From: a virus
Reading direction: 5' to 3' (one strand)
Virus record (IMG/VR): IMGVR_UViG_3300022912_000003
Length of the DNA stretch: 44,529 nt
The notes beneath the pieces were generated by a model that saw only the letters and a list, made by a program, of their open reading frames with translations, did no database searches and was not told where the DNA came from. The position numbers and the translations under genes were made by a program. Numbering within the stretch: position 1 is the first letter of the stretch; each line of letters starts with the position of its first letter. Shown here one piece after another: positions 1 through 44,529 of this stretch.

Positions 1-127
1 TACCTAATTTTACTATGTTCAGGCTTAGCGGAAACTATCCTGCAATAGTCCCAAGTATCAATCAATTAATAACTGTTGAAGTATATCGTATCACAGAGAA
101 AGTCTACAAGAAGATAGAACAGTTAGA
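1..127. repeat. Terminal direct repeat copy 1, identical to 44403-44529 (circular-assembly overlap)
   Basis: Read directly: tacctaattttactatgttcagg...aagatagaacagttaga is present at both window ends, 127/127 identical. Confidence 0.97.
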
Positions 128-245
128 ATTACCTTACAATTATCATGCTGAAACTATCACAACCGAATTTGGTGTCGCTACTATATATGTCTATAATACT
201 ATAGAAAGTGGCGACTGGAATAAACAAAGTAAAAGGAGGCTCTAA
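1..245 (+). CDS. gamma-glutamylcyclotransferase-like (AIG2/GGACT family) protein, C-terminal part of the junction-spanning gene
   Basis: In frame with 44312-44529 through the terminal repeat. Contains ..YPAIVP..VEVYRI..IEQLELPYNYH..ATIYVY typical of the GGCT-like fold, including the LE(x) Glu. Stop TAA at 243-245. Confidence 0.8.
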   Translation, partial: PNFTMFRLSGNYPAIVPSINQLITVEVYRITEKVYKKIEQLELPYNYHAETITTEFGVATIYVYNTIESGDWNKQSKRRL

Positions 246-445
246 TGAGAGCAATAAGACATGCGGCAATAGCAGTATTATCAATGATTTACACAAGTAT
301 GTGGTGGGTATCAATTCTATGGTATCCCGCAAAATGGGTAGCCCCAATATTAGCACTGTCAGTTGTTGGTGGGTTATTAATAATGACTTTTATCTGTATG
401 TGGGTTATAGATAATTGGGATTTTCGTAGCCCTAATTTAAGATGA
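245..445 (+). CDS. small membrane protein (about 2 TM helices)
   Basis: ATG overlaps the upstream stop (TAATG). Hydrophobic stretches AIAVLSMIYTSMWWVSILW and VAPILALSVVGGLLIMTFICMWV. Confidence 0.6.
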   Translation: MRAIRHAAIAVLSMIYTSMWWVSILWYPAKWVAPILALSVVGGLLIMTFICMWVIDNWDFRSPNLR

Positions 446-528
446 ACAAGTCTATAACTGTGATTGAGGTAATAGTCTCAATAATAACTGTACTAACAAT
501 AATAACAGGAGTAATTATCAATGGATGA
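442..528 (+). CDS. 28-aa hydrophobic peptide (putative)
   Basis: ATGA overlap with the upstream stop. MNKSITVIEVIVSIITVLTIITGVIING. Its stop overlaps the start region of the next gene. Below the ORF-track size cutoff. Confidence 0.3.
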   Translation: MNKSITVIEVIVSIITVLTIITGVIING

Positions 529-892
529 TTGGAATGGAAGATTATTAGAAGCCTATGATGCTTTAATAGCAGGGCTTAATAGTGTAAAGGACTTTGCTGT
601 AGAGCAAATACCAATAGTATTGCAGCAGCTCTTAGCATGGGAGTTTACAATAAATCTTATTGGGTTTGTATGTGCTATTGTTTTACTAATAATATTTACA
701 GGTGTGGTTTTATGGGGTTGTAAGTACTGTGTAGAAGAAGGTGAACCCCCTGTAATACCGATAATACTTTTAGTATCATCATTTATATATATACCCATTG
801 GATATTGGATTAATAATACTATTGTTTGGCTTAAAATCCTTATTGCACCTAAAGTATTCTTAATTGAATATCTGTCAGAACTTGTAAAATAA
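521..892 (+). CDS. membrane protein (about 3 TM helices)
   Basis: 123-aa ORF with long hydrophobic segments (LIGFVCAIVLLIIFTGVVLWG, PVIPIILLVSSFIYIPIGYWI). Part of a translationally coupled chain. Confidence 0.6.
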   Translation: MDDWNGRLLEAYDALIAGLNSVKDFAVEQIPIVLQQLLAWEFTINLIGFVCAIVLLIIFTGVVLWGCKYCVEEGEPPVIPIILLVSSFIYIPIGYWINNTIVWLKILIAPKVFLIEYLSELVK

Positions 893-999
893 TGAACACA
901 AAAACTAAATGGCGGATATACTGTAGAATGATAGCCTCAGTTATATTATTCATCGCAGGATTCACATTATTTGTACACTTAGTATCGTTAGTGAGGTAA
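892..999 (+). CDS. 35-aa single-pass membrane peptide (putative)
   Basis: TAATG overlap with the upstream stop. MNTKTKWRIYCRMIASVILFIAGFTLFVHLVSLVR. Confidence 0.35.
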   Translation: MNTKTKWRIYCRMIASVILFIAGFTLFVHLVSLVR

Positions 1000-1002
1000 C
1001 GT

Positions 1003-1257
1003 ATGAAATTTATACATAAATCAACACCGGCTATGACAGATGCTATGAAAAAATATCTCGTAGAACATCAATTATTAGAGAAATATTATGAAGAAATTAT
1101 AAAATTCTCCAATGAAGATGAAACTTGGAACCCTACTAATGTTGCAAAAAAACCTGCTGAAAGGTTCATTCTTGCCAGTTCAATATATGGTTATAGATTT
1201 TGGGAACAGCATAATGCTGCTTGTATCCTATTGCATAAAGGAGTCTACTATGTGTAA
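1003..1257 (+). CDS. FW-motif small protein family, paralog 1
   Basis: GAGGT RBS before the ATG. N-terminal KKYLVEHQLLEKY and C-terminal FILASSIYGYRFWEQH match the family pattern shared by 9 ORFs in this genome. Confidence 0.7.
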   Translation: MKFIHKSTPAMTDAMKKYLVEHQLLEKYYEEIIKFSNEDETWNPTNVAKKPAERFILASSIYGYRFWEQHNAACILLHKGVYYV

Positions 1258-1393
1258 ACAATTTGTTAAATCTGATACGTGCGGGTGTACTAAATGTGAC
1301 CCTGTACCAATATGGAAACAATGCTTTGCTATGTTATTCTTAGCAGTCTCATTCATTGGTTTCGTATACTTACTCATGGTGTGGAGTATCTGA
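1250..1393 (+). CDS. 47-aa protein with Cys-rich N-terminus and C-terminal TM helix (putative)
   Basis: AAAGGAG at 1237-1243, ATG at 1250. MCKQFVKSDTCGCTKCDPV...FAMLFLAVSFIGFVYLLMVWSI. Stop overlaps the next ATG (TGATG). Confidence 0.45.
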   Translation: MCKQFVKSDTCGCTKCDPVPIWKQCFAMLFLAVSFIGFVYLLMVWSI

Positions 1394-1614
1394 TGCCAAT
1401 TAAAATAGTGCAATCACTTCACTTATTCTTGACACAAAGACAATTACTGAAAACCTTTATATCTTTAACAGTGAAAGGTAATACTGTAAGAAATTTTATA
1501 GATCGCCCTTGTTCTTCTATAGACTCTGCGTTTAATTGGAGTATTTCATCACAGGGACACAGGTTTTGGGAGAATAAATCACGAGAATATGAAACATGGA
1601 AGGAGGGATTATAA
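1393..1614 (+). CDS. FW-motif small protein family, paralog 2
   Basis: Internal ATG of track ORF 1312-1614, chosen because it is coupled to the upstream stop. LHLFLTQRQLLKTF ... SAFNWSISSQGHRFWENK. Confidence 0.7.
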   Translation: MPIKIVQSLHLFLTQRQLLKTFISLTVKGNTVRNFIDRPCSSIDSAFNWSISSQGHRFWENKSREYETWKEGL

Positions 1615-1827
1615 ATGAAAATTGAAATAATACCAGAATTGCGTTTATATTTGATGCAGAATCAATTATTAAAAGAATTCACAGAAGAGGTGAGAGCATA
1701 TAGATCACTCAACCCAATGATGATGTGGAAAGAATGCAGAACAATAGATTGTTTTATTTGGAGAGAGTCTATACAAGGATATGAATTTTGGAGAATAGCC
1801 TGTCACAAATTTTATCAGGAGTTTTAA
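1615..1827 (+). CDS. FW-motif small protein family, paralog 3
   Basis: AAGGAGG RBS. LRLYLMQNQLLKEF ... CFIWRESIQGYEFWRIA. Start immediately follows the upstream TAA. Confidence 0.75.
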   Translation: MKIEIIPELRLYLMQNQLLKEFTEEVRAYRSLNPMMMWKECRTIDCFIWRESIQGYEFWRIACHKFYQEF

Positions 1828-2052
1828 ATGGATATTAAACTAACACAGAAATTACACCTGTATTTGATACAGCACAAGGCACTACATCTGTTTATTGATG
1901 AAGTGGAATCACGAGCAATAAGAAATACAATGTATAACCCTAATATAAGACATTCCTGTGTGAATAATTCCCTTCATTGGACTAATACACACCAAGGGGC
2001 ACAATTTTGGGAAGATATATACGAAGGTTTTTGTGCATGGGAGTATAGATAA
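1828..2052 (+). CDS. FW-motif small protein family, paralog 4
   Basis: LHLYLIQHKALHLF ... NSLHWTNTHQGAQFWEDIY. Start immediately follows the upstream TAA. Confidence 0.75.
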   Translation: MDIKLTQKLHLYLIQHKALHLFIDEVESRAIRNTMYNPNIRHSCVNNSLHWTNTHQGAQFWEDIYEGFCAWEYR

Positions 2053-2261
2053 TGATAATCCATAAGAGAGAGAAAGATTATCTTGTAAGACATCAATTAA
2101 TAGTTGAATTTGAGGAAGAATTCGATCAAGAATTTTTTGATGGATTGGATGATGAAGACCATACTATACGGATAGGCTCTGCATTTAATTGGGGTCGTTC
2201 AAAAAGAGGAAGTGATTTTTGGAATAGAGTACATTTAAACGTAATAAGAGGACAACACTAA
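2052..2261 (+). CDS. FW-motif small protein family, paralog 5
   Basis: TAATG overlap with the upstream stop. DYLVRHQLIVEF ... SAFNWGRSKRGSDFWNRVH. Confidence 0.75.
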   Translation: MIIHKREKDYLVRHQLIVEFEEEFDQEFFDGLDDEDHTIRIGSAFNWGRSKRGSDFWNRVHLNVIRGQH

Positions 2262-2280
2262 ACACGAAAGGAACAAATAA

Positions 2281-2361
2281 ATGATGGCAATAATTGCTAT
2301 GACGTATATTACAATAACGGCTACTATGACAGTAGTCAAATTAAAAGGAAGAACAAAATGA
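2281..2361 (+). CDS. 26-aa hydrophobic peptide (putative)
   Basis: AAAGGA RBS. MMAIIAMTYITITATMTVVKLKGRTK. ATGA overlap with the amidoligase start. Confidence 0.3.
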   Translation: MMAIIAMTYITITATMTVVKLKGRTK

Positions 2362-3890
2362 AAATCAAGTTCATTTTAGGCGGATTTTCACCTGAACAGG
2401 TGAGGTATATTGGTAAAAGTAGAAGGGCTTTTTCTAATATAGCAAAAGCTGAGGAGTTTGCATCTTTGAGAGGTAAAGCGTCTCTTAATGCAAAAACAAT
2501 AAGTGTGCAATTCGGAAGAATCCCGTCATGGTATCAAGCTATACGTGAAGGTATGATAAATCCTCCAAGCGGTAACAATGTATGGAGAGAGGTAGAAACA
2601 AAGTACGGAACGAAGAAAATAACCACAGGAATCTACTCCGTAGAGAAACCTGACTGCTATTTCAGTGATAATGTGGAAAGTAATGAGGTAGAGGCAACTC
2701 TATATTGTCCCGGATCACTAACAGAACATGACTGTGATAAAATTAGCAGGAATCTTACAAACTGTACGTTCAACCTACTGCCTTTAGTTATGAGTAGCCT
2801 TATAGCTAAAACAAAAGCATACTTTCTGAGGGAATCGCACGTAAAAACTACCATGAAAACAGATGGTATTGTCATAGAACTATCATTTGACGATACTAAG
2901 AGTACATCGTGTCCTCTATGTGGTGATGGGAAACCAACACGTAAAATACCAAATGGTATACACGTCTGTGAGAGCTGTTTTAGTGGCTTACCGCACTGCG
3001 AGCACTGTGCTGTAGTCATGATAAACAATGGTACGAGTAAATTATGCCCTGATTGTAAGAAAAAAGCAGTAAAATGCTCAAAATGTGGGACAAAGTTCAT
3101 CGCAAGAACATCTAAAGAGAAAAAAATCGGTAAATGTGCATCTTGTTATGAAAAATCAAGAGGTGTTGTGCAGAATTATAGTTATAACCCTGTGATTCCG
3201 CAATTTCTTGATATTCGTGGCAAAAGAGTTGTTTCTTATAGGGATAACTTTGCAAATGGAGTAGAGCCAAAACTATTTTTTGGATTTGAGAATGAAATGT
3301 ATGTGAAAAAACCACTTCACGAGAACATGGATAAAATACTTGAGGATGTTGGGCTCTTTGTATACTATAAAGACGATAGTTCTGTAAGAAAATCAGCAGG
3401 ATCAGACTGTAATAACGGGGTAGAGATGGTATCTTATCCTATGACATGGGAATTCTTCAACAAGCATCTGTACGATGGTCTACAAACCATTGATAATAAG
3501 GTTCTGACTGATGGGAACTGTGGATTACACGTACATTTCTCACGAGATGCCCTGAGTATACCACAGATGATAAACGTGGTGAAGTTCACTATGGATAATA
3601 AACCCTACATGATAAGAAGAAGTGGCAGGGGTGGTGAAAATTCCTTCTGTAAATATTCTGTTGATATGATGACAGGATTAAAACGAATAAATGACATCAA
3701 CCAGACTTTTGGTAGTCGGTGGGTATGGAACTTTAACAAACCAGCAACCATAGAATTTAGAGGGTTCTCAGGCTGTAGTAGCACATCTGAATTACGGGCT
3801 AAACTAATCTTTATCTTGTCAGTCCTTGAGGCAGGTAAAAATGGTACAATAACAATCGAAAAAATAGAAACAATAGAAAGGACATTTTAA
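2358..3890 (+). CDS. amidoligase (GCS2/glutamine-synthetase-like COOH-NH2 ligase, Amidoligase_2-type) with a ~270-aa N-terminal extension carrying multiple CxxC zinc ribbons
   Basis: C-terminal half carries FGFENEMYV, GVEMVSYPM, CGLHVHFS and IEFRGF in the order typical of the amidoligase_2 family. The N-terminal part has CPLCGDG..CESC..CEHC..CPDC..CSKC..CASC. Confidence 0.75.
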   Translation: MKIKFILGGFSPEQVRYIGKSRRAFSNIAKAEEFASLRGKASLNAKTISVQFGRIPSWYQAIREGMINPPSGNNVWREVETKYGTKKITTGIYSVEKPDCYFSDNVESNEVEATLYCPGSLTEHDCDKISRNLTNCTFNLLPLVMSSLIAKTKAYFLRESHVKTTMKTDGIVIELSFDDTKSTSCPLCGDGKPTRKIPNGIHVCESCFSGLPHCEHCAVVMINNGTSKLCPDCKKKAVKCSKCGTKFIARTSKEKKIGKCASCYEKSRGVVQNYSYNPVIPQFLDIRGKRVVSYRDNFANGVEPKLFFGFENEMYVKKPLHENMDKILEDVGLFVYYKDDSSVRKSAGSDCNNGVEMVSYPMTWEFFNKHLYDGLQTIDNKVLTDGNCGLHVHFSRDALSIPQMINVVKFTMDNKPYMIRRSGRGGENSFCKYSVDMMTGLKRINDINQTFGSRWVWNFNKPATIEFRGFSGCSSTSELRAKLIFILSVLEAGKNGTITIEKIETIERTF

Positions 3891-3891
3891 T

Positions 3892-5091
3892 ATGTGTTTA
3901 CTCATGTTGCAAAAAGGTGGGCATGTTATCCCAAAGGAGCATATAGAGCAAGCCTTTAAGACTAATAAAGACGGCTTGGGGTTTGCTTATGCTTCTGATA
4001 GTGTAATAAAACTACACAGATTCAAAACAACAAAACCATTCTTTAAGGCTTATTATAAAGCTGTACACGCAAACCCTGATGCAAACTTTCTTGTACATCT
4101 GAGGTTTGGTACGAGTGGTAGAAAAGATGACACTAATTGTCACCCGTTCTATGTTAATCCTAAGCTTGTGTTCGCACACAACGGAGTTATCCATTCTATT
4201 GCTGATGATCCTGAGAAGAAACTGTGTGACACAAGAATGTTCTGTGAATTAATCTTGAAAGAGGTTGATAAAGAGTTCCTATCTAATGAGGCACTATGCG
4301 AATTGATCCTATCATATATAGGAATTGGTAATAAGTTGGCGTTCCTTGATAATGAGGGGAAGTATACCATTATGAATGAGAGTGTAGGACATTGGAATGA
4401 AGGGGTATGGTATAGTAATATGAATTACAAATCAAACACCTATAAAACAAGGACTTATACACCCCCAAAAACGAGTAAAACTCCACACAGAAGTTCAGCA
4501 TGGTATCAGAATAACCGTTGGAATGGCACTGAGTTTATTAATAGGGCTACAGGTGAAGTAGTTCTTGATGATGAGGGTGATGAGCCTTATGATAATATTA
4601 CTCCATACTCACAGGGTGATCTCTATGATGATAACCCTGCATGGGGTTGGGGTGATATTGCAGGAGACCACATCGGTAATAACCATGAGGCAGGATGTCC
4701 TAATGAAGTAAAGGCTCTCGCTGAAACAAATGCTGTAAAACCATGTAAAGAGAATACCGTTCTCATGAGAAAAGCGGGGTCTGATTTTGCATGGAGTTGT
4801 AAACATAAGATCGGTAAAAAGATACAGTGCAATCATTGTGGTGAACCGAAGGGGACATTAATATCTCTTGATTGGCAGGGCTTTATGTGTTCAACTATGA
4901 AAGATAACACGATAGAGTGGCAATTTGAAATGCTTGGCTTAGAAGAAGTTGATATATATATATGTGAGCAATGTTTTACATCGCTTGAATATATCATGGA
5001 AGGCGACCTGACAAGTCAAGTTAGCAGGGTAATGACAAAAATCTATAAGAATAGATATGATATTATTCCTGAGAATATGCCGACAGTATGA
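3892..5091 (+). CDS. class-II (Ntn) glutamine amidotransferase-like protein with a Cys-rich C-terminal domain
   Basis: Starts MC.. (Cys2 nucleophile). DGLGFAY, HLRFGTSG, NCHPF and FAHNGVI match class-II GATase motifs. The C-terminal ~230 aa has CNHCGEP ... CEQC. Confidence 0.75.
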   Translation: MCLLMLQKGGHVIPKEHIEQAFKTNKDGLGFAYASDSVIKLHRFKTTKPFFKAYYKAVHANPDANFLVHLRFGTSGRKDDTNCHPFYVNPKLVFAHNGVIHSIADDPEKKLCDTRMFCELILKEVDKEFLSNEALCELILSYIGIGNKLAFLDNEGKYTIMNESVGHWNEGVWYSNMNYKSNTYKTRTYTPPKTSKTPHRSSAWYQNNRWNGTEFINRATGEVVLDDEGDEPYDNITPYSQGDLYDDNPAWGWGDIAGDHIGNNHEAGCPNEVKALAETNAVKPCKENTVLMRKAGSDFAWSCKHKIGKKIQCNHCGEPKGTLISLDWQGFMCSTMKDNTIEWQFEMLGLEEVDIYICEQCFTSLEYIMEGDLTSQVSRVMTKIYKNRYDIIPENMPTV

Positions 5092-5168
5092 TTGACATGT
5101 ATGACATAATGGCAGTAGTTGTAACTGCTCTGTTAGTGTACTTGGTTGATAAACTAATAAATAAGTAG
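5088..5168 (+). CDS. 26-aa single-pass membrane peptide (putative)
   Basis: ATGA overlap with the GATase stop. MIDMYDIMAVVVTALLVYLVDKLINK. Ends just before the RBS of the ATP-grasp gene. Confidence 0.3.
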   Translation: MIDMYDIMAVVVTALLVYLVDKLINK

Positions 5169-5176
5169 GAGGTATA

Positions 5177-5917
5177 ATGATCTATAGTACAACAAAAACA
5201 AGAAAAGGGGCTAAGTTAATAGCAGGATTGTGTGGGATGCGGACTACCGTATCCTTAGAGATGGCAAGGAATGCCCCATTTATAATACATTGGGGTACGA
5301 AGTGTGCAGAATCATTCAGTAGGAAACCAAGGCTGAATAGTAATCTACATTTGGTGAGGAATAAACTGACAGAGCTAACTATGTTGAGAGATGGTGACAT
5401 AAGAACAGTACCATTCTCAGAGAATCCTGATAGTGTTAGTTATCCAGCATTTGGTAGGTTATTTAATCATAGGGCAGGTACAGATATTCGTCTGTGCTTG
5501 TCAAGATTACACGCTGACTATGCCAAGAGTAATTTCTACAGTGAATATATAGATTCTAAAACAGAATACCGTGTCCATGTATTTAGAAATTGGGCTACAG
5601 ATAAGTACAATGTATTTAGAATACAGGAGAAATATCTCGAATCACCATTCAGCAATAAACCGTACTGTCGCAGTCGTGGCAATGGATTCCATCTGAGGAA
5701 CGTGAATAGGGAACAGTGGAGAGATTTTCCTGTGACTGTCAGGCAGTTAGCAACAAAGGCTTGTAGGGTCTTAAATAGAGACTTCGCCGCATTTGATATA
5801 ATTGTTACGCCTGATGATATACCGTATATTCTTGAAGCTAATTCAGCCCCCGGATGTGATGACCTTGGTGCATCGTTGTATGCTACAAGATTCCGTTCAT
5901 GGGCTGATTCATTATAG
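5177..5917 (+). CDS. ATP-grasp family ligase (RimK-like)
   Basis: AGGAGG RBS. EYRVHVF strand and FDIIVTPDDIPYILEANSAPG (E-x-N Mg/ATP motif) are characteristic of the ATP-grasp fold. Confidence 0.7.
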   Translation: MIYSTTKTRKGAKLIAGLCGMRTTVSLEMARNAPFIIHWGTKCAESFSRKPRLNSNLHLVRNKLTELTMLRDGDIRTVPFSENPDSVSYPAFGRLFNHRAGTDIRLCLSRLHADYAKSNFYSEYIDSKTEYRVHVFRNWATDKYNVFRIQEKYLESPFSNKPYCRSRGNGFHLRNVNREQWRDFPVTVRQLATKACRVLNRDFAAFDIIVTPDDIPYILEANSAPGCDDLGASLYATRFRSWADSL

Positions 5918-5925
5918 GAGGGACT

Positions 5926-6207
5926 ATGGATAGAAGTAACAATGCTAACGGATTATTGAGATTCTTGAAAGAGAATCAAGCGTACGAAAACTACATGAAA
6001 AAAACATCTAAGGATAGGGATTATAAATCCTTAGAAGATTTCATGGGGTTTGTAGAAATCATTGTAAACGAAGGGAGATATATTTCAGAAATATTTCGGA
6101 TATCTTTTAGTCGTGGGTTTTACCAAGAATATGGTGATGAACCATATTGGCACGGTATTGATATGAAATGGAGACAAGTATGTTGGGATTATTGTGATCG
6201 CCCCTAA
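5926..6207 (+). CDS. FW-motif small protein family, paralog 6 (divergent)
   Basis: GGAGGG RBS. LLRFLKENQAYENY ... YGDEPYWHGIDMKW. Confidence 0.6.
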   Translation: MDRSNNANGLLRFLKENQAYENYMKKTSKDRDYKSLEDFMGFVEIIVNEGRYISEIFRISFSRGFYQEYGDEPYWHGIDMKWRQVCWDYCDRP

Positions 6208-6466
6208 GTTAAGACTATTTCTAATAAAACGACAGGCTCTTGATCGGTTTGAATATAGACTTGATCCTGATAACTTTCCATATATGAATGACTGTTCAGA
6301 TGATTGTATGATTGAGGAAGCATTCGCTTGGGATGGAGACGATGATGAAGATTATTGGGAAGATTTGAATGGTGAATGGAATGATCTATGTGATACAATG
6401 TCAAACTTTAACATAGATGATATACTTAATGACTTTAGGAGTTTACATAGTTATGATACACTCTAA
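6194..6466 (+). CDS. FW-motif small protein family, paralog 7 (acidic variant)
   Basis: GTG start, 14-nt overlap with the upstream gene. LRLFLIKRQALDRF ... EAFAWDGDDDEDYWEDLNGEW. Confidence 0.6.
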   Translation: MIAPKLRLFLIKRQALDRFEYRLDPDNFPYMNDCSDDCMIEEAFAWDGDDDEDYWEDLNGEWNDLCDTMSNFNIDDILNDFRSLHSYDTL

Positions 6467-6701
6467 TCCTATATTCAGACATAGAATGCTTGTTACATTC
6501 TTATTAGAACGTCAAGCGTTGGATAAATTCCATTCCAATCTAAATAATGAAGATATAATAAATATGAGTACTGCCTGTAGCACCATAAATGTTAAAGCTG
6601 TGATATTCAATTCATTCTTTTGGAGTCAAACACCAGAAGGAGATGCGTATTGGGATTCATTACATCAGGAGTTTAGTAGTTTTTATATAGATTCTAATTA
6701 A
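6453..6701 (+). CDS. FW-motif small protein family, paralog 8
   Basis: Internal ATG of track ORF 6417-6701, preceded by TAGGAG. LVTFLLERQALDKF ... NSFFWSQTPEGDAYWDSLHQEF. Confidence 0.6.
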   Translation: MIHSNPIFRHRMLVTFLLERQALDKFHSNLNNEDIINMSTACSTINVKAVIFNSFFWSQTPEGDAYWDSLHQEFSSFYIDSN

Positions 6702-6707
6702 TCAATA

Positions 6708-6763
6708 ATAGTATATTATAATACTTATATAATATATATAATATAATAAGAGAGGTAAAAATG
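6708..6763 (+). promoter_or_regulatory. AT-rich promoter-like element plus RBS (TATAATATATATAATATAATAAGAGAGGTAAAAATG), copy A
   Basis: 59-bp intergenic gap. Near-identical element on the opposite strand at 39721-39765. Contains several TATAAT-like hexamers. Confidence 0.5.
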
Positions 6764-7012
6764 AGTTATGTGAAACATACACAAATGCCACAGACTGGAC
6801 AGTTTGTATTAATATGGAGTTACGATGGTAAAATTTGGAGCGACGTGTGTAAATGGATAGATGGTGTTTTATATCGTTATGATAAGAGCAGTGAGTGTGA
6901 TGATGAAAATTGTGGTTGTGATATCGGTTTTGAAGGGATAGATCAACACCCTGCTATGCAAGAAAACTATCAAGATTTAAATTATTTTACAATAAGAAAC
7001 GAAAGGAGTTAA
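6761..7012 (+). CDS. hypothetical protein (83 aa, Cys/acidic-rich)
   Basis: AGAGAGG RBS and ATG. First gene after the AT-rich element. Confidence 0.65.
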   Translation: MSYVKHTQMPQTGQFVLIWSYDGKIWSDVCKWIDGVLYRYDKSSECDDENCGCDIGFEGIDQHPAMQENYQDLNYFTIRNERS

Positions 7013-7127
7013 TATAAGCAATCAATTAACAATAGTAGATGACAGCACGTTATCAAATATAGTAGCAAGTCATAAGAAAGTATCTGAAACAGCTACACCA
7101 CCTGCACACGTAGAACAGAAAGCAGGG

Positions 7128-7622
7128 ATGGACTTTGTAAGTGAAGGATATATGAGGTCAGTGCTGAATAAAGAGTTTCCATTATGGTCTTGGGAAATAA
7201 AGAAGTATGAGTTACTTGGAGACAAGGAAGTAATCGTGCATGGTAGATTAACTATTAACGACAACAACACAGTAAGATTCTTTGATGCGGTAGCGTCGCA
7301 CAGAATAGCGGTTAGTAAAACCACAGGTGAATATGTCGATATAAGTAATAATATCAAAGCGGCTAACTCAGATTGTTTCAAGGTAGCAACTAACAGGTTG
7401 TGTAATGTAGCTGATGATGTGTACCGTAAATTAATAAGAGACCTATCCTTAACAGAGGAACAGGTTGATATAATAGACGGATTATTAGAAACATTAAACA
7501 ACACAACAACAGAAACGGAGATACGATCACGAATAGCAAGTGGTGCAGTGAACACCGACACATTTGACAAGTATGTCAATATGATAAAAGACGTAATAAA
7601 GAAAAAGATAGAGGAACATTAA
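7128..7622 (+). CDS. Rad52/Sak-like single-strand annealing protein (true start may lie upstream, frame open from 7014)
   Basis: ..VEQKAGMDFVSEGYMRSVLNKEFPLWSWEI.. resembles the Rad52/Sak core (Y.EG..v...N..FG..GWS.E). Sits in front of the SSB-like and helicase genes. Confidence 0.65.
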   Translation: MDFVSEGYMRSVLNKEFPLWSWEIKKYELLGDKEVIVHGRLTINDNNTVRFFDAVASHRIAVSKTTGEYVDISNNIKAANSDCFKVATNRLCNVADDVYRKLIRDLSLTEEQVDIIDGLLETLNNTTTETEIRSRIASGAVNTDTFDKYVNMIKDVIKKKIEEH

Positions 7623-8198
7623 ATGCCAAGATATGACCCATCAAAAGATATAAACCCTTACGTGAGATTTGTTGCAGGAGATTATCCCGCACATATCACT
7701 AAGGTTACAACAAGAATGGTTAACGTTCAGAAAGGCAAGTATAGAGCAGAGGTTTATAATATAACCTCTACTATAAACGAAGCCGTTAGTGGCACAACCT
7801 TCAAAACTATGGACAACAAAGGAGTAGAAAAAGAGGTCGAGGGTAAGCACTTCATTGATAAAGAAATACGACACAACGGAGTATTCAGATTTCTTGACCC
7901 ACTTGACATTGATGAATTTGAGTCAAACGAGGGTGGTAATGGAAAGTATATGAAGCTGTGCGAAGCTGTCGGTGCTGAACTAAAAGAAGTCAAAGAGGGT
8001 GAGCATACGTTATGGGAGTTTCCTGTAATAGATGAATCACACCTTATTGGTAAACCTATAATCGTGACAGTAGGACAAGGTAAGAAATATCTCAATAAAT
8101 CAAATGAGTGGGTGTATCCTATGATGGGTACAGACTTGTGTGTATGGGAAAGTGGAACACCTATTACTGATCCTGATAAAGAGGAATTACCCTTTTGA
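7623..8198 (+). CDS. putative ssDNA-binding protein
   Basis: Position between annealase and helicase. The C-terminus ..DPDKEELPF mimics the acidic-hydrophobic SSB tip (DDDIPF). Confidence 0.45.
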   Translation: MPRYDPSKDINPYVRFVAGDYPAHITKVTTRMVNVQKGKYRAEVYNITSTINEAVSGTTFKTMDNKGVEKEVEGKHFIDKEIRHNGVFRFLDPLDIDEFESNEGGNGKYMKLCEAVGAELKEVKEGEHTLWEFPVIDESHLIGKPIIVTVGQGKKYLNKSNEWVYPMMGTDLCVWESGTPITDPDKEELPF

Positions 8199-9520
8199 CG
8201 ATAGCTATTCCACCTAATTCGCCTGATGCAGAGATGGCGGTAATAGGTAGTGTAATGCAGACCCCTGCATTCTATGGTGATGTATCATTATATGTTAATG
8301 AGACAACACTGTACGATCAGACAAATAAACATGTATGGCAAATAATAAGAAACCTTATGGAAAACGGTAAGACTGTCGATTTTGTAACACTATCAAGTGC
8401 ATTAACAAAGGAAGATAAGGAAAAGTACGTTACTGCTTATACACTCTCACTGTATAGTGACAACGCAACATCATCTGTTGATCGTGTCACAATATATGCT
8501 AAGGAAGTGTATGAAAAGTACCTCATGCGTCTTGCAATCAAGCACGCAGGAGACTTAACGAGAACAGCCTATAATAATCCCTCGAATTTGTACAGTGTGT
8601 TGAACAGTGCTAACGCTACTATAAATGAGTTAATTGCTATGCTACCGTCGCATCCTTTCGACATGGGCGACGAATTAGACAAGACAATTATTACCCTTGG
8701 TAATGAGGAATCCAATCTTATCCCTGTAGGATTTGATAGTGTGGATGCCCTTGCCGGTGGTATGACTCGTGGAGAGGTTACTGTCATAGGCGGTAGACCG
8801 GGACACGGTAAAACAACATTCTCTCTAAACATTGCAAGTAATCTCGTATCGAGTGGTTACAAAGTCCTTATGATAAATAGGGAAATGACCAATATGGAGA
8901 TGCTTAAAAAACTAATAGTATTAGAGAGTGGTGCTCTATCGTATGGCAGAATGAGACGAGGTGATTTGTCCGATCTAAATAGAGAGGAAATAAATAGAGT
9001 TAGAGATTCCGTCCAAAAGAAATTTAACTCAGAACGATTCATGATGTGTGACAATATATTTGACATGGCATCTGCGGTAAATGTAATAAATCGGTTTAAG
9101 CCTGACGTAATTATAGACGATTACATCCAGCTTATCCGACCCGACAATCCGTCAGATCAACGTAGATTCCAAATAGAAAATATTGTGCACCAGTATAAAA
9201 GACTTGCAAAATCAATAAACTGTTCAGCCATACTTGTCTCTCAATTATCGAGAGCACTGGAAGCGAGAGGTCAAGGAGCGAGACCAATCCTTTCAGATTT
9301 GGCGGAATCGGGTACGATAGAACAAGTAGCAGAGAACGTGTGGTTTACATATTATGACTATAAAGTTTTTATGGGTCATAGTAAATCAGGTCAGAACGAG
9401 ATAGAAGTTATATGTGCGAAAGTGCGTTATGGTACAAGTGGTGTGTCTCACTGTGGTTACGATGGCGACAGAGTAAAGTTCTATGACTCTATAGATTCTT
9501 ACCGAAGTACGTTGTTTTAA
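8195..9520 (+). CDS. dnaB: DnaB-like replicative DNA helicase
   Basis: TTG start overlapping the upstream stop. N-terminal PPNSPDAEMAVIGSVM, Walker A GGRPGHGKTTFSLNIA, Walker B VIIDDYIQLI, SQLSRALEAR. Confidence 0.9.
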   Translation: MTIAIPPNSPDAEMAVIGSVMQTPAFYGDVSLYVNETTLYDQTNKHVWQIIRNLMENGKTVDFVTLSSALTKEDKEKYVTAYTLSLYSDNATSSVDRVTIYAKEVYEKYLMRLAIKHAGDLTRTAYNNPSNLYSVLNSANATINELIAMLPSHPFDMGDELDKTIITLGNEESNLIPVGFDSVDALAGGMTRGEVTVIGGRPGHGKTTFSLNIASNLVSSGYKVLMINREMTNMEMLKKLIVLESGALSYGRMRRGDLSDLNREEINRVRDSVQKKFNSERFMMCDNIFDMASAVNVINRFKPDVIIDDYIQLIRPDNPSDQRRFQIENIVHQYKRLAKSINCSAILVSQLSRALEARGQGARPILSDLAESGTIEQVAENVWFTYYDYKVFMGHSKSGQNEIEVICAKVRYGTSGVSHCGYDGDRVKFYDSIDSYRSTLF

Positions 9521-9526
9521 AAAAAT

Positions 9527-9557
9527 GGGGGCGGGTTTATTAACATGTCCCGTCCCC
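9527..9557. terminator. GC-rich hairpin (9-bp stem GGGGGCGGG/CCCGTCCCC). A canonical U-tract exists only for minus-strand transcripts
   Basis: Stem arms at 9527-9535 and 9549-9557 with one G-U pair. Preceded by A7 on + (T7 following on -). Sits right after the dnaB stop. Confidence 0.45.
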
Positions 9558-9576
9558 AGCCTAAACGGAGAAAACA

Positions 9577-9789
9577 ATGAGAGAGAAGACAAATTACAAG
9601 ATGTGGACAGATGATTATGGGTATAACTATAAAGTCAGCACACTAAGCCTTTCTGATATTATACATGTAGCGAGAAGAGTAATAACGGGGAGGATTCGCA
9701 GGCAGAATGCCAAGCAGTGGCTTGAAACATTCAGAGGTGAAGCCATTAGAAGGCAGAAATTGGAGGAATACGAACATGCAACTTCATAA
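9577..9789 (+). CDS. hypothetical basic protein (70 aa)
   Basis: ACGGAG RBS and ATG. Arg/Lys-rich. Confidence 0.55.
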   Translation: MREKTNYKMWTDDYGYNYKVSTLSLSDIIHVARRVITGRIRRQNAKQWLETFRGEAIRRQKLEEYEHATS

Positions 9790-10300
9790 TTATATAAGAA
9801 CAGTTTCAATTGAGAATAAAAGAACTAATGGTATTCTTGATGGTGATTGCCATGTGTTCCCGTGGATAGAGGGTGCTGTGTGTGGTGTATATCTTGGTGA
9901 AGATGAACTGATGCACTTCTGTTCAAGAACAAAGAAGATACCATATCACTTTGAGGATTGGAAGAATAGTTGGATAGGTCAGTTTATAGCATGGTGTTAC
10001 CATGATGTAGATATGATGGGAATGATAGAGGACTTCCCTGATTGTATATTCTGGTTTGTATGGAATACTGAGGACAAGCATCAATTAGTAGATGTATATT
10101 TATCAACGGAAGATAGGTATATACCATACAATGTGTACAGTGAATTACTTAGTGAGTACGATGTACGTCCTGTGGAGCCTATAGTTCAGGGTGATGTGAG
10201 GGATGCAATACAAGAAATGCCCATAGATATTATCATCAAAGACTATGACTTTGAAAATGAGTTTGGTGTTAATAATTGGGCAAAAGCGAATAAGGAATAG
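9776..10300 (+). CDS. hypothetical protein (174 aa)
   Basis: Internal ATG of track ORF 9707-10300, chosen because GGAGGA lies 8 nt upstream. 14-nt overlap with the previous gene. Confidence 0.6.
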   Translation: MQLHNYIRTVSIENKRTNGILDGDCHVFPWIEGAVCGVYLGEDELMHFCSRTKKIPYHFEDWKNSWIGQFIAWCYHDVDMMGMIEDFPDCIFWFVWNTEDKHQLVDVYLSTEDRYIPYNVYSELLSEYDVRPVEPIVQGDVRDAIQEMPIDIIIKDYDFENEFGVNNWAKANKE

Positions 10301-10302
10301 AT

Positions 10303-10581
10303 ATGGAAATACCAAGTGAGTTTAAAAACACGAATCCAATAGATAAGTGGATTAAAGTTGCCATGCTACACGAGGCTAATCAGCTTGCAGAATCAAAAGC
10401 TATTACCACAGACAAGCAAGGCATAGGATTGGACTTATGTTATTGTCCTAAATGTGGAAGAGTATTTAGTATGGAGATACTAAAGGGTGAAACATACCAA
10501 CAGTATTACAACGCTCTTCCAAAAACACAACACATAACATTATGTGATCCATGTTTCGTGGAGGTGTGTGATGAAAATTAG
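10303..10581 (+). CDS. hypothetical zinc-ribbon protein (92 aa)
   Basis: CYCPKCG ... CDPCF Cys pairs. Confidence 0.6.
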   Translation: MEIPSEFKNTNPIDKWIKVAMLHEANQLAESKAITTDKQGIGLDLCYCPKCGRVFSMEILKGETYQQYYNALPKTQHITLCDPCFVEVCDEN

Positions 10582-10780
10582 GCTTAGACCAAAAATAAAA
10601 CGATACTGCATTGAAAATCAAATCTTAGATAAGATAGAAGAGGAAGCTCATCTTCCTATGGACTTTCATGGGTTGAGTACATTCAGATGGGCTACCTCAA
10701 TATATGGTGCTCATTTTTGGATTAGACATGAAAGTGGTTTTAATAATTATTTAGAAAGAGGGGAAATATATGGCAATTAA
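10571..10780 (+). CDS. FW-motif small protein family, paralog 9
   Basis: GGAGG RBS 6 nt upstream of the ATG at 10571. IKRYCIENQILDKI ... STFRWATSIYGAHFWIRHE. Confidence 0.65.
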   Translation: MKIRLRPKIKRYCIENQILDKIEEEAHLPMDFHGLSTFRWATSIYGAHFWIRHESGFNNYLERGEIYGN

Positions 10781-10946
10781 AAAAGCAACGGGTGTGAAGA
10801 TTGATGAAGTTAAAAAGACAGCATTAATATCACTCGATAGATACAACACACTATTAGAGTGTGAAGAGGATTTGAGAGCGATAATGAGGTCTCTTAAATT
10901 AGGGGTTAGTATTCCAGAGAAATTCATGGGAGATAATAGACTATGA
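10770..10946 (+). CDS. hypothetical protein (58 aa)
   Basis: ORF just below the track cutoff fills the gap. Its stop overlaps the next ATG (ATGA). MAIKKATGVKIDEVKK... Confidence 0.45.
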   Translation: MAIKKATGVKIDEVKKTALISLDRYNTLLECEEDLRAIMRSLKLGVSIPEKFMGDNRL

Positions 10947-11251
10947 GACGAGCAAAGATAAGGATTGATAATGATATAGCATATCCAGTATTAAACATAC
11001 TGCGAAGGAATGGTGGATTTATCAATAGTGCAGAGATAGAGATGGTACTTAACATGGGTGGAGCAACAGTTAGGGGGTGTATACATTATCTTAGGGAGAG
11101 TGGACATCCTGTTATATCTACAGGCATGGGGTACAAGTACACAACCAACAAGAAAGAAATAAAGAGTTGTATAAAATCATTATTGCAGAGGGCAAGTAAG
11201 ATACAGTGTGCCGCTTATGCTTTAGATGATACATTAGATGCAATGGTATAA
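10943..11251 (+). CDS. winged-helix DNA-binding protein (putative transcription regulator)
   Basis: ..PVLNILRRNGGFINSAEIEMVLNMGGATVRGCIHYLRESGHPVIS.. resembles a wHTH of the HTH_11/BirA-N type. Confidence 0.5.
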   Translation: MRRAKIRIDNDIAYPVLNILRRNGGFINSAEIEMVLNMGGATVRGCIHYLRESGHPVISTGMGYKYTTNKKEIKSCIKSLLQRASKIQCAAYALDDTLDAMV

Positions 11252-11261
11252 GGAGAATAAC

Positions 11262-11498
11262 ATGAGTTTAGAATATGAATTATTAAAGAAGTCTATATCT
11301 AAAATTGACTTATCAAGATACGAAAAACAAATTCAAGAAGCTGTTGATAGTTATTTTAAGAATGGCGGGTTTAGTGATGAAATTTCAGAAGCCTTAAATG
11401 AATCAGAAATCGGGTGGAAGATTGCAGATGCTGTTGCTGATGCAGTGGAGAAGGCAGTAGATCAGTTTCATTTCGAGATAACAGTGTCCCCTAAATGA
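11262..11498 (+). CDS. hypothetical acidic protein (78 aa)
   Basis: AAGGAG RBS before the ATG at 11262 (internal to track ORF 11238-11498). Confidence 0.6.
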   Translation: MSLEYELLKKSISKIDLSRYEKQIQEAVDSYFKNGGFSDEISEALNESEIGWKIADAVADAVEKAVDQFHFEITVSPK

Positions 11499-11635
11499 AA
11501 AAACGTGAAACAATGAAAAAGAAAATCAACAGGCTTGCCAAGGAGTATTCTAATAATGGTAAGTGTTGGTGGGTGTATACTCATATAAAGGCTTATGCAT
11601 CTTATCACCATAACGATGAAAAGGAGGACAAGTAA
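11495..11635 (+). CDS. hypothetical basic protein (46 aa, putative)
   Basis: ATGA overlap upstream and TAATG overlap downstream. MKKRETMKKKINRLAKEY... Confidence 0.4.
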   Translation: MKKRETMKKKINRLAKEYSNNGKCWWVYTHIKAYASYHHNDEKEDK

Positions 11636-11946
11636 TGTATTGTGGTGAATGTGGAATACACGTAGTTTCTAATGCTATGTCAGGTTATTGTACAAGCTGT
11701 TTGCAAGATATGGTAAATAACAATCCATTAACCACTCAGGTTGGTGGGGATTGGTATAAGAAATTAAAGATACAACCTATCGACTATGTTATGTCCAATG
11801 ATTTAAATTACTTACAAGGAGCAGTAGTAAAGTATATCACAAGGCATAAAGCTAAGGGTGGTAAGGAGGACTTACTAAAAGCAATTCATTGTACAGAATT
11901 ACTAATTAAATATGAATATGGAGACGACGATGAGCAACAGAAGTGA
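11635..11946 (+). CDS. DUF3310-like protein with N-terminal zinc ribbon
   Basis: CGECG..CTSC followed by IQPIDYV...YLQGAVVKYITRHKAKGGKEDLLKAIHC, the pattern of the phage DUF3310 family. Confidence 0.6.
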   Translation: MYCGECGIHVVSNAMSGYCTSCLQDMVNNNPLTTQVGGDWYKKLKIQPIDYVMSNDLNYLQGAVVKYITRHKAKGGKEDLLKAIHCTELLIKYEYGDDDEQQK

Positions 11947-12202
11947 CAGGTTAAAGAATCTATCAAAGCTACCAGTATCAATGATGCTGTTAAATTCACT
12001 ATTCTCTTTAGTGGAATCTATGGCTGATAGACCTAATGAGGAAGAAAATATATTCTCTGACTTGGGTATAGTAGAATTACGTGTTGCGTTTAGAACACTA
12101 TCACATCTTGGGTATGCTACTGTAATAGAGAAAGAGGAAGAAGATCATATCTATTCATTAGACTACGCAACATTCTTTGCTGATATAGGAGGTATAGCAT
12201 GA
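11930..12202 (+). CDS. hypothetical protein (90 aa)
   Basis: GGAG 6 nt upstream of the ATG at 11930 (internal to track ORF 11912-12202). Confidence 0.55.
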   Translation: MSNRSDRLKNLSKLPVSMMLLNSLFSLVESMADRPNEEENIFSDLGIVELRVAFRTLSHLGYATVIEKEEEDHIYSLDYATFFADIGGIA

Positions 12203-40466: not shown

Positions 40467-40484
40467 ATGATTTCCTTTATTTTG

Positions 40485-40556
40485 AGCCAACATAAGGAGT
40501 CGAACCCTAATCTTCTGGGTACAAACCAGTGGTAATAGCCATTATACTACATTGGC
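40485..40556 (-). tRNA. tRNA-Thr(UGU)-like gene, 72 nt, no encoded CCA
   Basis: Hand-folded cloverleaf: acceptor GCCAATG/TGTTGGC (2 G-U), U8, A14, G18G19, A21, anticodon loop TT-TGT-AC, 4-nt variable loop, T arm TAGGG-TTCGACT-CCTTA with G53, T54, T55, C56, A58, C61. Confidence 0.65.
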
Positions 40557-44152: not shown

Positions 44153-44310
44153 GTTGTTGTGATGGGTGGGAATACTCCGATAAAGAGGTAAATGGAGTAT
44201 GTAAGGATTGTGGTATGCCAACAGTAGGCGGACACGCACAAGAAGGGTGTCATTATAGCCCCGTAGTGTGTGAAACCTGTGGATGGTCGCCTTGTGACCA
44301 AAGTTGTTAA
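44149..44310 (+). CDS. 53-aa Cys-rich (9 Cys) small protein, GTG start
   Basis: GGAGG 8 nt upstream of the GTG. (M)SCCDGWEYSDKEVNGVCKDCGMPTVGGHAQEGCHYSPVVCETCGWSPCDQSC. Absent from the track because it is under 60 aa. Confidence 0.55.
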   Translation: MSCCDGWEYSDKEVNGVCKDCGMPTVGGHAQEGCHYSPVVCETCGWSPCDQSC

Positions 44311-44311
44311 T

Positions 44312-44529
44312 ATGAAATTATTAGCAACGTATGGAACATTACGCAAGGGTCACTATAATAATTATTTATTGAGAAATAGTGAACTTCTTGGAGAGAATAT
44401 TCTACCTAATTTTACTATGTTCAGGCTTAGCGGAAACTATCCTGCAATAGTCCCAAGTATCAATCAATTAATAACTGTTGAAGTATATCGTATCACAGAG
44501 AAAGTCTACAAGAAGATAGAACAGTTAGA
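44312..44529 (+). CDS. gamma-glutamylcyclotransferase-like (AIG2/GGACT family) protein, N-terminal part; continues at 128-245 after circular closure
   Basis: MKLLATYGTLRKGHYNNYLL.. is the hallmark YGTL+.G N-terminus of GGCT-like enzymes. The ORF is open to the window end and in frame through the repeat. Confidence 0.8.
   Translation, partial: MKLLATYGTLRKGHYNNYLLRNSELLGENILPNFTMFRLSGNYPAIVPSINQLITVEVYRITEKVYKKIEQL
44403..44529. repeat. Terminal direct repeat copy 2, identical to 1-127
   Basis: See 1-127. Confidence 0.97.

Follow-up and report, generated by a model that had tools for sequence, protein, structure and literature searches.

We analysed the phage genome IMGVR_UViG_3300022912_000003 over its full length of 44,529 nucleotides (hereafter the window), in which nine small open reading frames (ORFs) surround a set of ligase-like enzyme genes. 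The gene order is a γ-glutamyl cyclotransferase (GGCT)-like gene, small ORFs, five copies of the small gene family, an amidoligase gene, a class II glutamine amidotransferase (GATase) gene, an ATP-grasp ligase gene and three further copies, with the ninth copy lying further downstream. According to the sequence evidence, all nine are true genes, whose products are old and strongly diverged paralogues of a domain of about 65–85 residues that is widespread and does not carry a name; the same evidence links this domain to the amidoligase-GATase pair.

Nine paralogous genes around an enzyme cassette

All nine ORFs, which an earlier note on this DNA had assigned to one expanded family, were confirmed at their coordinates on the plus strand, and each of them ends with a TAA stop codon. 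Copy 1 (1003–1257) encodes 84 amino acids, follows a GAGG Shine-Dalgarno sequence, is called in public assemblies and has lost the first tryptophan of the C-terminal motif (FILASSIYGYRFW). Copies 2 (1393–1614, 73 amino acids), 3 (1615–1827, 70 amino acids), 4 (1828–2052, 74 amino acids) and 5 (2052–2261, 69 amino acids) follow one another directly, and their proposed coupled junctions were found as described, namely TAA-ATG at 1614/1615 and 1827/1828 and TAATG at 2050–2054. Downstream of the ligase genes lie copy 6 (5926–6207, 93 amino acids), which keeps the N-terminal helix and carries a six-residue insertion that breaks the C-terminal motif, and copy 7 (6194–6466, 90 amino acids), which starts with GTG, has an isoelectric point (pI) of 4.05 and shows a substitution of the motif glycine (FAWDGDDDEDYW). 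Copy 8 (6453–6701, 82 amino acids) is the sole copy with a canonical TPEG, and its start is ambiguous between 6417, 6429 and 6453; copy 9 (10571–10780, 69 amino acids) is isolated, 3.9 kb downstream of the other copies. Shine-Dalgarno sequences of the GGAG type precede eight of the nine copies, the exception being copy 7 with GGGA alone before its GTG. Together the nine genes occupy 2,139 nt or 4.8% of the genome, in agreement with the 2 kb estimated before.

Membership in the family was assessed with leave-one-out hidden Markov models (HMMs) searched against the complete six-frame set of 385 ORFs (40 or more amino acids) in the window. Eight copies obtained E-values from 1.6e-8 to 8.9e-14 and ranked straight after the respective training members (copies 1 to 5: 2.6e-9, 2.4e-12, 8.9e-14, 4.5e-13 and 6.7e-10; copies 7 to 9: 1.6e-11, 3.4e-11 and 1.6e-8), so that a lack of profile significance, foreseen in the note as the argument against a family, does not apply to them. 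Copy 6 scored weakly (leave-one-out E = 0.18; E = 0.009 with a profile of 41 sequences; hhalign E = 5e-4) and aligned along its entire length with each of the two repeats of P0132, a two-domain member from outside the window (E = 1e-5 and 6e-5). As this alignment runs end to end, copy 6 was counted as a degenerate ninth member; the claim of nine copies is thus solid for eight of them and holds for the ninth by way of P0132. No tenth copy was detected among the ORFs searched, the best remaining one reaching E = 0.53.

The bipartite signature proposed for these proteins, consisting of an N-terminal amphipathic helix, a variable linker and a C-terminal aromatic motif, was also borne out, with both motifs found in copy 2 and the C-terminal one degenerate in copies 1, 6 and 7. 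A strict form of the latter, [FL].W..[ST]..G..[FY]W, occurred six times in the window and not once in 100 shuffles, and the pattern of the N-terminal helix occurred six times compared with a shuffle mean of 0.22; all occurrences of both patterns fell inside the listed ORFs. The linker between the conserved blocks comprises about 20–26 residues and is not conserved among the six copies in which it could be parsed. Pairwise identities among the window copies are as low as 16–39%, a distance at which synonymous sites are saturated, the pI values of the nine proteins span 4.05–9.74, and the C-termini all differ (YYV, EGL, QEF, EYR, GQH, DRP, DTL, DSN and YGN). The acidic position of TPEG is occupied in the window copies by Q, Q, Q, R, Y, D, E or Y.

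Copies 1 and 2 are separated by an ORF for a cysteine-rich protein of 47 amino acids with a hydrophobic segment (1250–1393, plus strand), which does not belong to the family. The ORF is present as noted before, with its ATG at 1250 inside a longer ORF (1112–1393) and its TGA overlapping the ATG of copy 2 at 1393. Public gene predictions do not call it and extend the start of copy 2 back to 1312; the coding status of the ORF is uncertain. Further ORFs of 66, 123 and 35 amino acids lie between the GGCT-like gene and the array (245–445, 521–892 and 892–999), of which the latter two encode hydrophobic, membrane-like products; neither these three ORFs nor the one of 47 amino acids carry a family assignment. 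At the isolated copy 9, an ORF of 92 amino acids (10303–10581) with a zinc-ribbon-like CPKC...CDPC pattern overlaps the start of the family gene by 11 nt.

The enzyme genes are all encoded on the plus strand. The first of them (2358–3890, 510 amino acids) encodes a glutamine-synthetase-like carboxylate-amine ligase of the amidoligase type, as revealed by similarity to PHROG 2443 ('amidoligase enzyme', E = 3e-7) and to Pfam Amidoligase_2 (E = 9e-4, which lies under the curated cut-off), and its catalytic domain covers approximately residues 305–507. The adjoining gene (3892–5091, 399 amino acids) encodes a class II GATase of the N-terminal cysteine, Ntn type (Pfam GATase_4, E = 2.4e-6, 27.2 bits with a cut-off of 23), in which the MC start and the motifs HFR..T.G, HPF and HNG are conserved. 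It is followed by a RimK-like ATP-grasp ligase of 246 amino acids (5177–5917; PHROG 2599, E = 3.9e-17; weak match to Pfam Dala_Dala_lig_C). A GGACT/AIG2-like, i.e. γ-glutamyl cyclotransferase-like, gene is split over the ends of the window, with its 5′ part at 44270–44529 (precomputed PF06094 assignment for the product of 125 amino acids) and its 3′ part verified at 128–245, about 750 nt upstream of copy 1; it resumes at 128 because positions 1–127 repeat positions 44403–44529. Several CxxC pairs resembling zinc ribbons are located in the N-terminal half of the amidoligase (approximately residues 185–270) and in a C-terminal extension of the GATase (approximately residues 305–365), and are absent from the core enzyme domains; these cysteine-rich regions may represent extra targeting or interaction modules.

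Cassettes of an amidoligase and a class II GATase, with or without ATP-grasp and GGCT genes, occur in hundreds of phages, among them abundant marine phages and the LUZ24-like Pseudomonas phages of therapy research. The gene set of the LUZ24-type phages (amidoligase, class II GATase, RimK-like ATP-grasp, GGCT/AIG2) is the same as that of the early-strand block of the window. The window version of this cassette is divided, with eight family copies on its flanks, whereas the LUZ24 cassette comes without any family member. The LUZ24-type cassette was predicted by Iyer, Abhiman, Burroughs and Aravind (2009), as cited in PMC10580990 and PMC3890496; its function is treated as unknown, and a role in cell-wall modification or in the synthesis of metabolites was speculated (PMC10580990). 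As far as the available parts of this literature go, they contain speculation on function only and name no partner domain.

The ends of the genome form an identical direct repeat of 127 nt (1–127 and 44403–44529), which identifies it as a circularly assembled, complete phage genome of about 44.4 kb. The phage was seen again at approximately 100% identity in metagenomes of JGI and ENA, and its source is uncultured. A megablast search with positions 1–12000 against 50,697 GenBank phage records gave no match, and the closest terminase relatives among GenBank phages showed about 32% identity. L134 (IMGVR_UViG_3300030329_002785) is a distant relative with conserved synteny (large terminase subunit 51%, DnaB 48%, portal 39% identity), which keeps GATase and amidoligase and has no detectable ATP-grasp gene; L211 (IMGVR_UViG_3300020472_000005), a relative by DnaB (48%), keeps the GATase. 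In these and other relatives of the window phage (DnaB 35–48% identical, same synteny), no family copy was found in the flanks examined. A single tRNA-Thr gene (anticodon TGT) is located at 40484–40556 on the minus strand near the terminase end of the structural module. A scan of the window for promoters and terminators performed no better than with shuffled sequences.

Distribution, fold and copy number of the domain

With a HMMER profile built from the eight solid copies, a search of 1.84 billion representative proteins retrieved 1,069 clusters (defined at 50% identity) at E ≤ 1e-3 and 43 at E ≤ 1e-10, nearly all of them of viral or metagenomic origin. Hence, as this HMM search beyond the genome revealed, the family is not peculiar to the window; larger arrays also exist elsewhere. 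Its members are either free-standing proteins of 65–90 amino acids or longer proteins with 2–8 tandem repeats, e.g. P0008 (557 amino acids), P0009 (964 amino acids) and P0010 (417 amino acids). P0008, P0009 and P0013 (434 amino acids; locus L414, 10001–11305) consist almost entirely of family domains in tandem (5–8 or more); P0009 is extremely acidic, and the gene of P0013 lies between primase and DNA polymerase genes with no ligase in view.

We also scanned viral contigs and bacterial genomes with a degenerate DNA pattern for W..TPEG..[FY]W. True family members were present in 109 of 120 viral-contig matches compared with 28 of 120 bacterial-genome stretches, and the family is mainly viral or phage-borne. 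Among GenBank phages it is rare, and tblastn revealed only the motif-bearing gp073 of PAK_P3-like phages, one uncultured phage of 735 kb and one Microviridae record. In Pseudomonas phage PAK_P3, gp073 (YP_008857708.1; L007, 1339–1581) is a hypothetical protein of a cultured phage which carries a perfect C-terminal motif (SAFVWSDTPEGYDFW) and an N-terminal part that does not match the profile; it offers a possible experimental handle in a tractable phage.

An alignment of 41 sequences yielded the consensus L..FL...(Q/G).L.kF..N, a variable stretch and I..AF.W..TPEG..FW..l...(F/W), in which full or almost full invariance is limited to six positions (L, L, F, W, G and W). The conserved positions are all hydrophobic, aromatic or glycine, and linker, C-terminal tail and net charge vary. 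Neither a conserved polar residue nor a conserved C-terminus was found among the nine copies and in the 41-sequence alignment, and CxxC pairs and a conserved C-terminal glutamate were likewise absent from both. AlphaFold2 modelling of copy 3 with the 41 sequences predicted a compact three-helix domain (helices at residues 7–15, 19–32 and 56–69; pLDDT 83.9, pTM 0.71), for which Foldseek retrieved nothing at E < 0.1 from PDB and BFVD. A search of PDB sequences with the family profile gave only a chance-level match to a helix of Csm5.

The statement of the earlier note that no named family could be recognised was upheld by these searches. Scans of the copies and of outside members against Pfam, NCBIfam and PADLOC (the latter at E ≤ 0.01) returned nothing meaningful, and the only matches were obtained to PHROGs 16354, 25460, 10949 and 20568, and also 30073 and 38635, which are all annotated as 'unknown function'. 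Outside members reached E-values down to 4e-18 in these searches, the window copies 3.5e-5 to 1e-2. PHROGs 16354, 25460, 10949 and 20568 represent the same domain as the window copies, which are divergent from them and match mostly by the C-terminal motif alone, sometimes with a few residues before it. The PHROG collection thus splits the domain over several families, without name or function and without a record of arrays or of a linkage to enzymes; no publication on the domain was found in the literature. A Pfam scan of 75 long family proteins revealed no recurrent fusion partner. Single family-containing proteins matched eukaryote-type domains (IRS-type PTB, TB2/DP1/HVA22, lunapark zinc ribbon) or BspA-type leucine-rich repeats, which may point to members beyond phages or to chimeric gene models.

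This pattern of conservation is the signature expected of a structural scaffold with diversified surfaces, and would suit neither an enzyme nor a ligatable tag. Since no catalytic or acceptor residue is conserved, the domain is most likely a non-enzymatic binding module.

In 92 of the 109 viral family loci, a single copy is in view, so that the window, with nine copies in 44 kb, ranks among the densely populated cases. Multi-copy arrays are not restricted to it and were also found in L006 (185-kb contig, NCBI GCA_964450735.1) with 14 copies in 20 kb, in L412 (97-kb contig, ENA ERZ27249457) and L413 (20.8-kb contig, ENA ERZ27249312) with 12 and 13 copies, respectively, in L036 (266-kb contig) with 12 copies, in L005 with seven copies on a 2.2-kb contig, and in L004 (16.5-kb contig) with six copies. 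Copy number is polymorphic, as the check for variation in related phages proposed in the note made evident. L412 and L413 differ by one copy, and a variant strain of the window phage, represented by short contigs from three further samples (L008, L009 and L010; ENA ERZ27250217, ERZ27250255 and ERZ27250158), carries an extra pair of paralogues. Compared with window positions 1994–2351, this variant strain has copy 5 at 98% nucleotide identity, then a start-less remnant of 66 nt from the 3′ end of copy 4, two paralogues, P0115 and P0062, and the intergenic region preceding the amidoligase gene at about 74% identity. P0115 is a diverged paralogue of copy 4 and P0062 of copy 5. The arrangement, as read from these sequences, is a recombination scar combined with a copy-number difference in the array.

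The earlier note had regarded the nine genes as a within-genome expansion. A recent burst in situ was rejected, as the distances among the window copies match those to homologues of unrelated phages. Several copies are closer to proteins encoded elsewhere than to any other copy of the genome, e.g. copy 8, whose best outside relative is P0128 (40% identity), and copy 5 with P0062 (42%), which argues against a recent expansion.

Linkage and fusion of the domain to the amidoligase-GATase pair

To quantify the association, we fetched 80 viral loci (1.18 Mb) with an alignment of six GATases and used 80 DnaB-anchored loci (1.17 Mb) as control. A jackhmmer search starting from the window amidoligase recruited the GATase-adjacent ORF in virtually all GATase loci, nearly always upstream of the GATase gene. 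The family was present in 13 of the 80 GATase-anchored and in one of the 80 DnaB-anchored loci (Fisher p = 0.0012; stop-to-stop ORFs, limited flanks and no phylogenetic correction). At the GATase loci, all family matches were located on the strand of the enzymes, and 17 of 20 free-standing matches were no more than 3 kb away from the enzyme pair, compared with an expectation of 41% (p = 6e-5). The family genes usually adjoin the pair directly, with a gap of only 4–31 nt in five distinct loci (six with a near-duplicate), and the GATases of the family-positive loci fall into at least 16 lineages that share less than 60% identity.

The association was also recovered in the reverse direction: GATase or amidoligase genes directly adjoin the family in five family-anchored loci, namely L006 and four of the 120 viral loci of the motif scan (L014, L031 and L115 among them). 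In L006, one copy is followed by two amidoligase-GATase pairs and 13 copies, and in L412 and L413 three copies are followed by two such pairs and nine or ten copies. In these large, unrelated phages the enzyme pair is thus tandemly duplicated and flanked by 12–14 family genes, and the largest arrays with visible context repeat the flanking layout of the window.

The ATP-grasp ligase does not share this association. Homologues of it occurred in 11 of the 80 GATase loci, none of which was family-positive, and a link of the family to the ATP-grasp ligase in the manner of a graspetide-like system was rejected, as this gene was found in none of the 13 family-positive loci. The 'neighbouring ligases' to which the small proteins had been connected before are thereby restricted to the amidoligase-GATase pair.

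In addition to being neighbours, domain and enzyme are found in one polypeptide. In L146 and L148, an ORF of about 500 codons upstream of the GATase gene bears the family domain at its N-terminus, and its C-terminal part was recruited by jackhmmer from the window amidoligase (E ~1e-42). A search with the L148 protein returned 301 homologues, and the N-terminal family domain was present in 19 of the best 120, doubled in three of them. For both fused genes examined (P0203 and P0218), the GATase gene comes next and the vicinity is free of stand-alone copies. P0218, as modelled by AlphaFold2 (pLDDT 88.2), shows a helical N-terminal domain, a beta-rich middle part and a catalytic domain, and the top Foldseek matches were glutamine synthetases, GmaS and YbdK (E = 3e-4, probability up to 0.96). 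No earlier record of a linkage or fusion between the domain and amidoligases was found in the literature as far as its available parts extend.

Possible roles of the small proteins

As the domain occurs preferentially beside the amidoligase-GATase pair and is fused to the N-terminus in a whole clade of amidoligases, we draw a functional link to this enzyme pair. The reading which we tentatively favour, at a little less than an even chance, is that the small proteins are diversified non-enzymatic binding subunits or adaptors which serve as facultative accessories of the amidoligase-GATase. Free-standing copies would act in trans and fused domains in cis as accessory subunits, which might bring in the molecule that is amidated or ligated, or might steer or regulate the enzyme. 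The binding specificity would differ from one diverged paralogue to the next, and the nine copies of the window would thus provide nine specificities. We infer that the domain binds something and contacts the amidoligase, and that the diversity of paralogues mirrors a diversity of targets. Among the functions suggested in the earlier note, adaptors for the ligases have gained from the frequencies at GATase and control loci, the direct abutment and the fusions, and alternative substrates have lost ground.

Several observations weigh against such an accessory role. The family is nearby at only 16% of the GATase loci, in a comparison that includes no correction for phylogeny, and approximately 95% of the family loci show no GATase or amidoligase within the ~10 kb examined. 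The cultured phage LUZ24 carries the complete cassette without any family member, and the relatives L134 and L211 keep enzymes and have no family member in the flanks examined. The arrays of L004, L036 and L040 and the five-repeat protein P0013 are located in replication regions with no enzyme in view. The commonest neighbours of the family are replication and recombination genes (DnaA-C helix-turn-helix, DnaB, ERF, C5 methylase, NinG/NinB), with which a general early-region role would fit too, and the PDB and BFVD searches provided no structural analogue that hints at a bound partner. Enzymes without the family in LUZ24, L134 and L211, together with family loci devoid of the enzymes, indicate that the domain is neither needed by nor confined to the enzyme.

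The same observations can be accommodated by autonomous early binders for host takeover or counter-defence, with each paralogue addressing a different host or defence protein independently of the cassette, and with co-location explained by both being accessory genes kept in the same plastic early region. We regard this as a possible, if somewhat unlikely, explanation. The enzyme pair is out of view at most family loci, where DnaA-like, DnaB, ERF, NinB/NinG and methylase genes are the usual neighbours; surfaces and charge are highly diverse, and copy number varies between near-identical strains (L008–L010; nine copies downstream in L412 and ten in L413), as is typical of arms-race genes. However, this explanation does not account for the repeated fusion of the domain to amidoligase N-termini (19 of the best 120 homologues, some doubled), nor for family genes lying directly against the enzyme pair in many lineages; the DnaB control also samples early regions and yet contains the family in one of 80 loci, and the PADLOC defence library gave no match at E ≤ 0.01. 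A role as small nucleic-acid-binding or transcription-regulatory early proteins with a helix-turn-helix-like fold appears very unlikely to us. The model shows a short turn between helices 1 and 2, two outside members are fused to Pfam HTH_39 and the family is found among replication and recombination genes, but there is no likeness to DNA-binding folds in PDB or BFVD, basic residues are not conserved, several copies are strongly acidic with pI values down to 4.05, and the 75 long members contain no recurrent fusion to a DNA-binding domain. That the family is an artefact of chance similarity or non-coding ORFs is scarcely credible: the promoter and terminator scan, no better than shuffles, would be in line with it, whereas leave-one-out E-values reaching the order of 1e-14, more than 1,000 homologous clusters elsewhere, Shine-Dalgarno sites with coupled junctions and genes ~100% identical in independent metagenomes all contradict it.

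The small proteins might instead be substrates or carriers of the ligases which become amidated, glutamylated or ligated, comparable to the systems Pup/PafA, LysW/LysX and ribosomal protein S6/RimK or to the precursors of ribosomally synthesised and post-translationally modified peptides (RiPPs). The accumulation of multi-copy small proteins around a glutamine-synthetase-like ligase, a RimK-like ATP-grasp and a γ-glutamyl cyclotransferase-like gene suggests this, as do the combination of a conserved 'recognition' helix with a variable segment and the repeats within one polypeptide, which recall multi-core precursors. Pup is a small, intrinsically disordered protein of about 60–70 amino acids with a C-terminal GGQ or GGE, which is handled by the glutamine-synthetase-like ligases PafA and Dop and has the proteasome as partner. 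The likeness to Pup exists at the level of the system, as a small protein encoded beside a carboxylate-amine ligase of the glutamine synthetase fold; the window family, by contrast, lacks a conserved C-terminus, is predicted to be folded and has a class II GATase as enzyme partner instead of the proteasome. LysW is a zinc-ribbon protein with a conserved acidic C-terminal tail ending in glutamate and serves as amino-group carrier protein together with LysX, an ATP-grasp enzyme of the RimK family. Small, sometimes acidic proteins next to a RimK-like ATP-grasp also occur here, copy 7 with its pI of 4.05 following the ATP-grasp gene, but zinc ribbon and C-terminal glutamate are missing and the family does not co-occur with ATP-grasp genes across phages. 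RiPP precursors of the graspetide type possess conserved donor and acceptor residues (Thr, Ser or Lys with Asp or Glu) and an obligatory ATP-grasp ligase, whereas the window copies vary at the acidic position of TPEG and an ATP-grasp gene is present in none of the 13 family-positive loci, compared with 11 family-negative ones. Glu, Gln, Lys, Thr and C-terminal residues all lack conservation, the predicted stable fold is unlike a disordered tag or leader, and it would be unusual for an enzyme to carry its own substrate, once or twice, in the same polypeptide; we therefore consider the substrate explanation improbable.

In their organisation, the arrays resemble the strings of EsaG immunity genes, which are bacterial tandem arrays of diversified small paralogues evolving by recombination (PMC9484751). 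Non-identical paralogues arranged head to tail, copy-number differences between strains and recombination scars are common to both. There is no homology between the two families, and EsaG confers immunity against a cognate toxin in bacteria, whereas the arrays described here are found in phages and flank a ligase.

Returning to the binding subunits of the amidoligase-GATase, a bolder version, which we regard as rather doubtful, would see the domain as the missing targeting component and the enzyme pair as a machine for amidation or ligation directed at proteins or other macromolecules, equipped with interchangeable specificity subunits. Each small protein, either fused or free and multiplied, would deliver the enzyme to a different host or phage target, and the phage would thus encode a programmable system of post-translational modification.

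What is new is that a phage amidoligase cassette known from computational prediction has a previously unrecognised, multiplied partner domain. A family definition is warranted for this domain, which comprises over 1,000 clusters, reaches 14 copies per array and is repeated in proteins as long as 964 amino acids. If the paralogues indeed differ in specificity, the arrays would represent a compact natural library of small helical binders. As the domain recurs beside the amidoligase and fused to it, it provides an experimental entry to the function of the cassette, and finding what the small proteins bind will probably reveal what the enzyme acts on.

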